Virus record (IMG/VR): IMGVR_UViG_2711768068_000018
Location: 1 to 5,558 of that record
Length of the DNA: 5,558 bases
Reading direction: 5' to 3' (one strand)
DNA from: a virus
Taxonomy: Duplodnaviria; Heunggongvirae; Uroviricota; Caudoviricetes
Part shown: positions 3,446-5,558 of the stretch, piece by piece
Layout of the letters: each line of letters opens with the position of its first letter
Position numbering within the stretch: the first letter of the stretch is position 1
Notes under the pieces: model-generated
Told to the model about the DNA's origin: nothing
Seen by the model: the letters and a program-made list of their open reading frames with translations, nothing else
Database searches by the model: none
Program-made: the position numbers and the translations under genes

Positions 3446-4015
3446 ATGAATATGATGGCCGTGCCGTTTCACGGCAACTCTCTTTATGTAGTTAACCATA
3501 ATGGCGAACCATACGTTCCCATGAAACCTGTCGTTGCGGGGATGGGGCTGGCCTGGCAATCACAGTTGGCTAAGTTAAGACAGCGTTTTGCGTCAACTAT
3601 AACGGAAATCGTTATGGTTGCTGAGGATGGGAAACAACGCAATATGGTGTCCATGCCACTTCGAAAACTTGCCGGCTGGCTACAAACCATTAATCCCAAC
3701 AAAGTAAAACCCGAAATCCGCGATAAGGTCATCCGGTATCAGGAAGAGTGCGACGATGTTCTTTACGAGTACTGGACGAAGGGTTTTGTCGTTAATCCCC
3801 GTAAAATGAGCGTGATGGAAGAACTCAACCAGGCTTGTGCTGACATGAAACGGGATAAAAACATTGCCAGTGTGTTTGCTACCGGGCTGAATGAGTGGAA
3901 ACAGGTTAAAGCCGCGCATGTATCAAAAATCCGTACGCTGGTAAATGAAGCGAATATGCTGATTGATTTTGTCCTGGCTGATACAGGCAAAGGGAAAATA
4001 ACAAAGGCGGATTGA
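3446..4015 (+). CDS. Putative antirepressor-like protein (Ant/AntA N-terminal-domain type), 189 aa
   Basis: ORF with an AGGA Shine-Dalgarno (3433-3436). The N-terminal region (VPFHGNSLYVVNHNGEPYVPMKPVVAGMGLAWQSQ...) resembles, from memory, antirepressor N-terminal domains annotated in enterobacterial prophages. Domain family not confirmed by a search. Confidence 0.7.
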   Translation: MNMMAVPFHGNSLYVVNHNGEPYVPMKPVVAGMGLAWQSQLAKLRQRFASTITEIVMVAEDGKQRNMVSMPLRKLAGWLQTINPNKVKPEIRDKVIRYQEECDDVLYEYWTKGFVVNPRKMSVMEELNQACADMKRDKNIASVFATGLNEWKQVKAAHVSKIRTLVNEANMLIDFVLADTGKGKITKAD

Positions 4016-4168: not shown

Positions 4169-4636
4169 ATGAACCGTGTTCTGTGTGTGGTGATTATTGT
4201 CATGGCGGTTGGCTGTGGTGCGCTGTGGCTGGCAACAAACCATTACCGTGACAACGCGCTCACCTACAAAGCGCAGCGCGATAAAAAAGCCAGAGAGCTG
4301 GAACAGGCGAATGCCACCATTACTGACATGCAGGTGCGCCAGCGTGATGTTGCTGCGCTCGATGCAAAATACTCGAGGGAGTTAGCCGATGCGAGAGCTG
4401 AAAATGAAACTCTGCGTGCTGATGTTGCCGCTGGTCGTAAGCGCCTGCGGATCAACGCCACCTGCTCCGGTACCGTGCGTGAAGCCACCGGCACCTCCGG
4501 CGTGGATAATGCAACCGGCCCCCGACTGGCAGACACCGCTGAACGGGATTATTTCATCCTCAGAGAACGGTTGATGACAATGCAGAAGCAGCTGGAAGGG
4601 GCACAGGACTATATCCGCACTCAGTGCCTGAACTAA
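4169..4636 (+). CDS. Rz: Rz inner-membrane spanin (i-spanin)
   Basis: 155 aa with an N-terminal TMD ([19 protein letters not shown]) then [32 protein letters not shown]...[24 protein letters not shown], collinear with recalled lambda Rz. AGAGAG Shine-Dalgarno at 4163-4168. Confidence 0.93.
4389..4574 (+). CDS. Rz1: Rz1 outer-membrane lipoprotein spanin (o-spanin), embedded in a different frame within Rz
   Basis: 61-aa ORF wholly inside Rz in another frame. Signal peptide plus lipobox (LVVSAC, Cys20) and a proline-rich mature part ([33 protein letters not shown]) that is nearly identical in pattern to recalled lambda Rz1. GAGGGAG Shine-Dalgarno 7 nt upstream. The true start may be Met6 (4404). 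Confidence 0.85.
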
Positions 4637-4998
4637 GTTTTGCTGATGCGCCGTATCGTCGCCGTATTCCTGCATTAACAGAGACCGCAGCCCGACAGGG
4701 AGACTCCTCTGCGAGAGTGTGCGGGGATAATCAAAAACGATACACACCGGGGTTTACCGCGTAAACGGAGCGCGGCGTTCTCCCCTCATGGTCGCCCGTC
4801 CGGTGCGATGGTGGAAGAAACTGGAATCTGTTCAATAAAAAAACTGCCGTGTTGGAGTCACAGCAGTAATGTACTGATTGGGTAGAAGATTATTATTGTT
4901 ATGCTTTATTCTTATTCTATATGGCTGATTATTTCAATTCGGAATTAATACAGCTAATGTCTGTGAGTTTTTATAAATTCAGCAATATAAAGAAATAG

Positions 4999-5226
4999 TT
5001 ATATGAACAGCCATCGCAGAGCATACTGTGTATCATTCTTTTTTATAGTCAACTGACGGGCATATTTTATGTCTGCTGCCAGCTCCCGGCGGCAAGATTC
5101 AATGACCCACGCAGAAAAATTTTCTGAACCTTTCTGGTCAAGAGCGATGTTAATTTGTTCAATCATCTGGTTTGGAAATCGGATGTTGCGGGTTGTTGTT
5201 CTGCGGGGCCGGTTTTTCGATGACAT
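4999..5226 (-). CDS. Small DUF3950/YlcI-YnfO-like protein, possible ribbon-helix-helix DNA-binding fold (75 aa)
   Basis: MSSKNRPRRTTTRNIRFPNQMIEQINIALDQKGSENFSAWVIESCRREL... resembles recalled YlcI/YnfO-family small prophage proteins found beside terminase genes. AGAGGA-type Shine-Dalgarno on the minus strand just upstream of the ATG at 5226. Confidence 0.65.
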   Translation of the reverse strand: MSSKNRPRRTTTRNIRFPNQMIEQINIALDQKGSENFSAWVIESCRRELAADIKYARQLTIKKNDTQYALRWLFI

Positions 5227-5267
5227 TTTCTTTCCTCTGGTGACAAGCTATATGGCGAGGATTTTAC

Positions 5268-5558
5268 ATGGCTGTGCTTCGTACGTTACCGGGCAGAATC
5301 AAAACTCTGAACACCCGGCGGGTGAATATTCTGAAGGGTGAACAGCGTCGTGTCAGTGGCAGTGCACGTGTTTCCCTCAAGCGTCATATCTGGCTCAGGG
5401 ATGCCGGGCAGTGCTGTCTCTGTGGTCGTGTGGTTGACCTCTGTGACAGTGAACTCGATCACCGCATTGCACTTCAGTTCGGTGGTGGTAATGAGGAGAC
5501 GAATCTCTGGACGCTCTGTACCGAATGCCATCGACAAAAGTCTGCTCGTGAAGCGGCG
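5268..5558 (+). CDS. HNH endonuclease, phage packaging-associated type; 5' part, runs off window end
   Basis: Hand translation from ATG 5268 (GAGGA Shine-Dalgarno 5257-5261) gives 97 codons with no stop: MAVLRTLPGRIKTLNTRRVNILKGEQRRVSGSARVSLKRHIWLRDAGQCCLCGRVVDLCDSELDHRIALQFGGGNEETNLWTLCTECHRQKSAREA. CxxC...DH...N...CxxCH is the canonical HNH zinc-finger nuclease motif. Missing from the ORF track only because it has no stop within the window. Confidence 0.85.
   Translation, partial: MAVLRTLPGRIKTLNTRRVNILKGEQRRVSGSARVSLKRHIWLRDAGQCCLCGRVVDLCDSELDHRIALQFGGGNEETNLWTLCTECHRQKSAREAA

Follow-up and report, generated by a model that had tools for sequence, protein, structure and literature searches.

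A divergent DUF3950–HNH gene pair at the apparent lysis/packaging junction of a BP-4795-like lambdoid prophage

Results

Gene content and setting of the junction

We analysed a 5,558-nt stretch of viral DNA (the window) with attention to positions 4999–5558, where two genes diverge. The model that we consider quite likely is a BP-4795-like lysis/packaging junction, in which an HNH endonuclease gene belongs to the late operon and a DUF3950 gene, with a product of the ribbon-helix-helix (RHH) type, forms a separate antisense unit. Gene identities, gene order, conservation, a terminator and purifying selection were observed directly and form the basis of the model. A divergent pair consisting of a DUF3950-like gene and an HNH gene had been claimed in a preliminary description of the sequence, and the claim was confirmed in every detail, including the ORFs, the family matches and the 41-bp gap between the genes.

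The segment 4850–5558 of the window shared 99.7% identity with phage BP-4795 and with other Stx1/Stx2 phages. The gene arrangement is already known, being annotated by RefSeq in BP-4795, phage 2851 and many Stx phages; the labels 'DUF3950 domain-containing protein' and 'HNH endonuclease' stand at identical places in BP-4795 (NC_004813), phage 2851 and Stx2a_WGPS2, which are 99.4–99.7% identical to the window here. The window as a whole is the late region of a lambdoid, Stx-type prophage, and the stretch 4999–5558 appears to be the junction between the lysis cassette and the head/packaging module of this BP-4795-like prophage.

The upstream genes on the plus strand encode a P21-type holin, YdfR/DUF1327, a lysozyme, a P22-type antirepressor (Ant) and Rz with an embedded Rz1. 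The Rz spanin gene (4169–4636, plus strand; Pfam Phage_lysis, E 5e-50) is the last lysis gene and marks the upstream module; Rz1 lies inside it at 4389–4574 (plus strand; Pfam Rz1, E 2e-21). The Ant gene (3446–4015, plus strand; P22_AR_N and ORF11CD3) and a 49-aa ORF interrupt the lysis cassette, where they separate the lysozyme gene from Rz; from this location, both would be expected to be co-expressed with the late genes. The minus strand carries an ISEc20 (IS110-family) transposase gene at 476–1672, upstream of the holin gene. An Rfam scan of the whole window at E values up to 1 returned zero RNA families. A 90-aa plus-strand ORF at 5069–5341 was dismissed as a shadow of the two real genes, DUF3950 and HNH.

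Identification of the two divergent genes

The DUF3950 gene (4999–5226, minus strand) encodes a 75-aa protein that starts with MSSKNR. The protein matched Pfam DUF3950 (PF13132) with an E value of 3.1e-17 (62.6 bits, cut-off 25) and NCBIfam YlcI_YnfO_N (NF041551) with an E value of 5e-10 (39.2 bits, cut-off 30). Both curated cut-offs were exceeded, indicating that it is a member of the YlcI/YnfO family; a match to phrog_949 was also obtained (E 2e-32). For codons 1–50, comparison with lambda-type copies gave dN/dS values of 0.08–0.11 at dS 0.8–1.0. The ORF is a real gene under purifying selection and not a chance ORF.

The HNH gene starts with the ATG at 5268 on the plus strand and runs off the window end at 5558, with the first 97 of its 121 residues inside the window. 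It matched Pfam HNH (PF01844; E 5e-7, 30.1 bits, cut-off 21.4) and phrog_589 (E 1e-44). The His...Asn...His motif and the zinc site that characterize these endonucleases were both found, and all catalytic and zinc residues lie within the window (C49-x2-C52, D64-H65, N79, C84-x2-C87 and H88).

The distance of 41 bp given earlier for the two start codons was exact. The divergent spacer, as read from the sequence, comprises bases 5227–5267 and holds both ribosome-binding sites: the HNH Shine-Dalgarno sequence is GAGG at 5256–5259, and that of DUF3950 is GAGGAAAG on the minus strand. A weak −10-like hexamer, TAAAAT, is also located in the spacer, on the minus strand at 5266–5261.

The DUF3950 gene as a probable self-contained antisense unit

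A terminator scan identified an intrinsic terminator of the DUF3950 unit on the minus strand at 4843–4867, approximately 130 nt past the stop codon of the gene. It consists of a 9-bp stem followed by U7. The RNA fold had an energy of −17 kcal/mol (z −4.7), and none of 200 shuffled sequences was as stable. When read on the plus strand, the palindrome is without a T-run, leaving a terminator on the minus strand alone. The composition profile further revealed an AT-rich block at 4840–5080, which covers the variable 3' end of DUF3950 and its 3' UTR and has a GC content of 28–33%, compared with 50–58% on either side. Because it has its own terminator and low GC and runs antisense to the late operon, DUF3950 appears to be a self-contained, moron-like unit inside that operon.

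The gene resembles lambdoid morons such as bor and lom, reportedly from the work of Hendrix, in being a small accessory gene that runs against the late operon, with its own terminator and a GC content below that of its surroundings. Like them, it is probably expressed from the prophage. Unlike them, it is far more widely conserved and keeps one fixed position, and its product appears to be DNA-binding and cytoplasmic, not an envelope protein. In an analysis of RNA-seq samples, K-12 ylcI and ybcW are listed as transcripts that overlap convergently in at least half of the samples (PMC12288877), which indicates prophage transcription for at least one member of the family.

We scanned the spacer 5227–5267 for promoters and found nothing above the threshold; the promoter scan gave 2 sites against 1.2 expected, which is no better than shuffled sequence. 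A minus-strand candidate inside the HNH gene (CTGACA-17-CAGAAT) was discarded, as it was not conserved in a second HNH-type locus. The short repeats present in 4800–5558 look like chance rather than operators, and no operator repeat common to lambda-type and HNH-type phages was found. The small protein may, as the preliminary description suggested, be a local regulator, but neither an operator nor a convincing promoter was detected for such a role.

For the HNH gene, the preliminary description had offered either late read-through or promoters overlapping the coding regions, and the evidence favoured the former. Between Rz and HNH, the promoter scan detected nothing promoter-like on the plus strand, and the sole strong hairpin in this interval is the terminator at 4843–4867, which works on the minus strand only. 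From these two observations, read-through from the Q-dependent late promoter would be the simplest reading of HNH transcription. Such Q-dependent late read-through is the standard lambdoid arrangement.

The HNH gene and the downstream packaging module

The window ends inside the HNH gene, and terminase and cos were read in near-identical genomes. In BP-4795, HNH is followed by a 290-bp gap, TerS (Terminase_2), an HK97-family TerL, a 645-aa protease-capsid fusion and the portal; the terminase genes that had been predicted downstream are thus present. The earlier account had counted an HNH ORF interrupted shortly after the window as evidence against itself. In BP-4795 the ORF is uninterrupted, has 122 codons and ends 75 bp past the window. 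The HNH-TerS-TerL order was the same in Escherichia coli ESDR8.

To call the module 'HK97-type', as the preliminary description did, was correct in part. The BP-4795 TerL was 23% identical to HK97 gp2 (E 6e-12), with PF03354 and PF20441 in both, and the portal (PF04860), capsid (PF05065) and protease (PF04586) also belong to HK97 families. In contrast, no similarity was detectable for the other two components: BLASTP of HNH against HK97 gp74 gave an E value of 0.11 over 57 residues, which is not significant, the generic Pfam HNH domain alone being common to both, and TerS, a Terminase_2 (P27-type) protein unrelated to HK97 gp1, showed no significant similarity to it. The module also differs from that of HK97 in that the protease and the capsid protein are fused (645 aa) and the capsid gene precedes the portal gene. 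The name is right for the architecture, broadly, and not for every component.

A passage in PMC9410871, citing Kala et al. (2014), states that in HK97 the cleavage of cos by TerL is stimulated in vitro by gp74, and gp74 is known to be required for infectious particles (PMC9410871). HNH genes adjoining cos and terminase are a recognised pattern (PMC3592412). The proposal that an HNH endonuclease at this position works with terminase in cos-type packaging therefore agrees with what that passage reports for gp74 and with a known gene pattern. The HNH protein of the window resembles gp74 in its small size (~120 aa), in having a single catalytic domain plus a zinc site, and in lacking an extra zinc ribbon. 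Like gp74-type packaging HNH genes, its gene would lie directly before cos and TerS/TerL, an order seen in BP-4795 and ESDR8. The zinc site is CxxC...CxxC here, whereas that of gp74 is CxxC...CxxH (PMC3592412). Since HNH is not significantly similar to gp74, a role in packaging rests on position and analogy; from its position and its partners, we infer that the present HNH may act in packaging.

We also considered that HNH could be a free-standing nuclease, selfish or homing, or active in defence or anti-defence, that adjoins terminase without having a packaging role. The HNH domain is promiscuous; the PDB sequence matches of the protein were HNH domains of IscB/Cas9-type proteins, which gave the best matches, and of other HNH proteins; PADLOC gave weak matches to nuclease effectors; and the lack of significant gp74 similarity would also fit a nuclease of this kind. 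The gene, however, occupies a fixed position between the right arm and TerS in approximately 150 phage records, and it co-occurs with an HK97-family set of TerL, portal and capsid that is known to need an HNH partner. The protein is also small and lacks an extra targeting domain. We consider a free-standing nuclease highly improbable and favour a part in packaging.

A candidate cos region in the HNH-TerS gap

In BP-4795, the HNH-TerS gap opens with CCCGCCCC, immediately past the HNH stop codon. For phage SfI, the cohesive end (cos) determined by experiment is TGCCCGCCCC, and the packaging genes of SfI are grouped with those of SfV, phi-P27, ST64B and e14 (PMC3636060). CCCGCCCC resembles this SfI cos. 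It is followed by copies of ATGTTAAC, which are partly arranged as inverted pairs. All five ATGTTAAC copies of the 18.7-kb BP-4795 locus were located in a 122-bp stretch of the gap, against 0.47 expected, and none of 200 shuffles reached five.

The likeness to SfI suggests that CCCGCCCC is probably the cos cleavage site, and the ATGTTAAC copies look like TerS binding sites. Sequence likeness and the repeat count together delimit a candidate cos and ATGTTAAC array at 9785–10004 of locus L001, approximately 75–300 bp past the window end. We infer that cos would lie approximately 75–400 bp beyond the window end, in the 290-bp gap, consistent with the earlier prediction of a cos site just beyond the window.

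Two further observations concern this gap. The database record of phage Lys8385Vzw starts inside the HNH-TerS gap; this was not taken as end mapping, as the record is marked circular. In E. coli ESDR8 (L062 8954–10150) and in the PPompW prophages, a copy of ISEc20 is present in the HNH-TerS gap, the putative cos region, and packaging would probably be disabled there.

Distribution of the DUF3950 family

Among 1.8 billion representatives, the DUF3950 family is a small one, with 190 clusters at 50% identity. In the family alignment, the N-terminal 50 residues were nearly invariant and the C-terminal tails were unrelated; in the protein of the window, residues 10–50 form the conserved core and residues 51–75 the hypervariable tail. 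A PADLOC search with the protein gave no match, and we found no literature on the function of the YlcI/YnfO family.

Related loci were searched with the close DUF3950 alignment as the query. In lambda-type prophages of Escherichia and Shigella, DUF3950 is always divergent from Nu1, with approximately 390 bp, containing cos, between them. Phage lambda itself (NC_001416) contains an intact 64-aa DUF3950 ORF at 48109–48303 on the minus strand (L010 2710–2904), approximately 200 bp from the right cos end. The ORF is antisense to the late operon and is unannotated in the lambda RefSeq record, but annotated in some lambda-like records. The gene of the window shares its Pfam and NCBIfam family with K-12 YlcI (DLP12), YnfO (Qin) and the lambda ORF, as well as the orientation antisense to the late operon, the place as the last gene ahead of cos and of the first packaging gene, and a nearly identical stretch of 50 N-terminal residues. 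The loci differ in the divergent neighbour, which is Nu1 at approximately 390 bp with cos between in the YlcI, YnfO and lambda loci and HNH at 41 bp with the putative cos after HNH in the window, and in the C-terminal tail, which in the window is unrelated to the other three. Lambda-type and HNH-type loci become homologous from the DUF3950 ATG onward, which places the boundary of the packaging module exactly at the 5' end of the gene.

Distant DUF3950 homologues were present in Rouxiella, Tatumella and a Clostridia MAG (L049, L051–L054 and L058, near 8000), among ordinary chromosomal genes. Their neighbours, as judged by eye from the translations, include oxidase-subunit-like and transporter-like membrane proteins, and no phage genes are nearby. 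These chromosomal settings speak more for a general role as a small regulator than for one dedicated to packaging.

Many family matches in unrelated taxa (Streptomyces, Cohnella, Pedobacter and Pseudomonas) were on contigs of approximately 3.5 kb or 48.5 kb (L019–L046 and others). These contigs were 99.8–100% identical to the lambda right end or to whole lambda; an example is CP136411.1, 'Arcanobacterium hippocoleae plasmid unnamed1', of 3566 bp. The 3.5-kb contigs match the nanopore control strand. The contigs of both sizes are control or spike-in DNA left in assemblies, and the family is thereby inflated with error-laden copies.

Predicted fold of the 75-aa protein

The small protein had previously been called RHH-like. 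Several signals were concordant with this assignment, namely the order of secondary structures, Foldseek, hhalign and a PDB profile search, and each of them was non-significant. Taken together, they make an RHH fold of the 75-aa protein likely in our judgement. From the predicted RHH fold it follows that the protein probably binds DNA.

The AlphaFold monomer had a mean pLDDT of 70.7. It was extended to residue 18, with a helix at 19–32 and a second helix from 34, and no strand was formed without a partner chain. In Foldseek searches, the top PDB matches were plant TCP-domain factors and the RHH protein ArtA, and the top BFVD matches included a copy-control protein and CopG, all with E values above 1; the TCP domain is one that we take to have an RHH-like fold. 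Alignment of DUF3950 with an Arc alignment by hhalign (P 0.0017, probability 15%) paired NIRFP with NLRWP over the strand and helix A. When PDB sequences were searched with a profile, the CopG-family RHH chain 9kkd_A was matched (E 0.096) across helix A, the loop and helix B, and one DUF3950 family member showed a weak RHH_6 match (E 0.09). A PDB sequence search with the single protein or the close alignment gave no meaningful match, and BLASTP of DUF3950 against P22 Arc and Mnt was not significant.

The predicted elements of DUF3950 follow the order seen in P22 Arc and CopG: a basic N-terminal arm, then a short strand of alternating residues, then helix A, which a loop connects to helix B. 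N14 and R16 of its NIRFP segment align with N11 and R13 of NLRWP in Arc. These two Arc residues contact DNA bases. The protein differs from Arc and CopG in that it has no significant sequence or fold match, its loop varies in length, and its C-terminal tail is long and variable; in addition, no operator or regulated promoter is known for DUF3950. A role of DUF3950 as an Arc-like repressor of Ant (3446–4015) was rejected, as the gene is also present in lambda, the right end of which shows no ant.

DUF3950 genes in satellite-like elements

DUF3950 was found fused to the N-terminal domain of Terminase_2 in two diverged proteins that are 44% identical to each other, P0242 (L004 5590–6363) and P0207 (L008 4714–5103), both encoded in satellite-like elements. 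The TerS-like domain of P0242 was 66% identical to residues 2–54 of the BP-4795 TerS. The fusions link the DUF3950 domain to packaging-related DNA recognition in satellites; a role of the phage copy is not implied.

These fusions bear on the idea that phage DUF3950 is a packaging or cos-associated DNA-binding factor instead of a transcription regulator, and that it modulates terminase recognition or protects cos. They are in line with it, as is the fact that lambda-type and HNH-type phages alike always have DUF3950 as the gene nearest cos. The gene is, however, antisense to the late operon, and its expression is probably shut off at the time of packaging; distant family members occur in the non-phage chromosomal settings described above; and no DNA motif near the gene is common to the two phage types. 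Minimal lambda cos fragments are, as is generally known, packaged without the DUF3950 gene. A cos-associated factor is quite unlikely on this balance, and we retain a separate antisense unit with an RHH-type product as the preferred reading.

The gene order of the satellite-like elements was integrase, a small gene, one or two DUF3950 genes and primase, with TerS and capsid genes in addition in L004. The DUF3950 genes have a divergent regulatory position beside the integrase gene. L004 carries a second DUF3950 gene, of 60 aa, beside the fusion gene. Repeat arrays with an AAACAC core were located upstream of the fusion genes, and two perfect TGGTACGTACCA palindromes were located upstream of the 60-aa gene. 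In E. coli CP027459, the L004 element directly adjoins a BP-4795-like prophage whose sequence is cut off 277 bp into TerL (L004 8044–9730 versus L001 10912–9223), suggesting that the element seems to be integrated in a helper-type TerL gene. Positions 1723–1789 of L004 were similar to the BP-4795-like HNH-TerS (cos) gap.

An arrangement of this kind could reflect phage-satellite conflict, in which the phage DUF3950 mimics, titrates or replaces the DUF3950 regulator of a satellite and induces or represses the satellite. The elements with their DUF3950 genes beside the integrase gene and palindromes or repeat arrays upstream, the insertion of one of them inside the TerL of a BP-4795-like prophage together with its cos-gap-like stretch, and the listing of YlcI/YnfO proteins in the annotation of capsid-forming PICIs (PMC13612085) are consistent with it. 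This support is contextual throughout, however, and TGGTACGTACCA had no match in the window, even at 3 mismatches. We regard satellite conflict as a very unlikely explanation of the phage copy, and our preferred reading is still that of a separate antisense RHH-type unit.

Discussion

In the preferred model, late read-through, the cos position, the cooperation of HNH with terminase, the RHH fold, DNA binding and the timing of expression are predicted steps. HNH would be the first gene of the packaging module and would have no promoter of its own; it would be transcribed in the Q-antiterminated late operon through holin, lysozyme, Ant and Rz. By analogy with gp74, its product, a small zinc-containing nuclease, may assist the HK97-family TerL in concatemer cutting, and the cut would be made at cos, in the 290-bp gap after the HNH stop codon and upstream of the Terminase_2-type TerS.

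DUF3950 would be a separate unit on the opposite strand, moron-like and AT-rich, with its own ribosome-binding site and a strong terminator, and it would always be the last gene of the lambdoid right arm beside cos, whatever terminase type follows. Its predicted product is a small dimeric DNA-binding protein of the Arc/CopG-like ribbon-helix-helix kind. As late transcription runs antisense across the gene, the protein would most likely be made in the lysogen or in early infection and not in late growth.

As a module boundary, the DUF3950/HNH junction is textbook and ordinary. It helps chiefly in orienting the window: to the right lie the late operon, cos and the head genes. What value is left lies in the small protein, which evolves at a dN/dS of approximately 0.1 and is located beside cos even in lambda. 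The satellite fusion to a terminase DNA-binding domain is a concrete lead on it. The invariant cos-nearest position of the gene, and the recurrence in satellites of fusions to a TerS domain downstream of repeat arrays, raise the idea that the phage copy might act as a gate to cos, or else might sense or control satellites. It is unlikely, in our estimate, that YlcI/YnfO is an RHH factor of the Arc kind with a link to cos-packaging specificity or helper-satellite conflict; if true, such a reading would give a function to an overlooked lambda gene.
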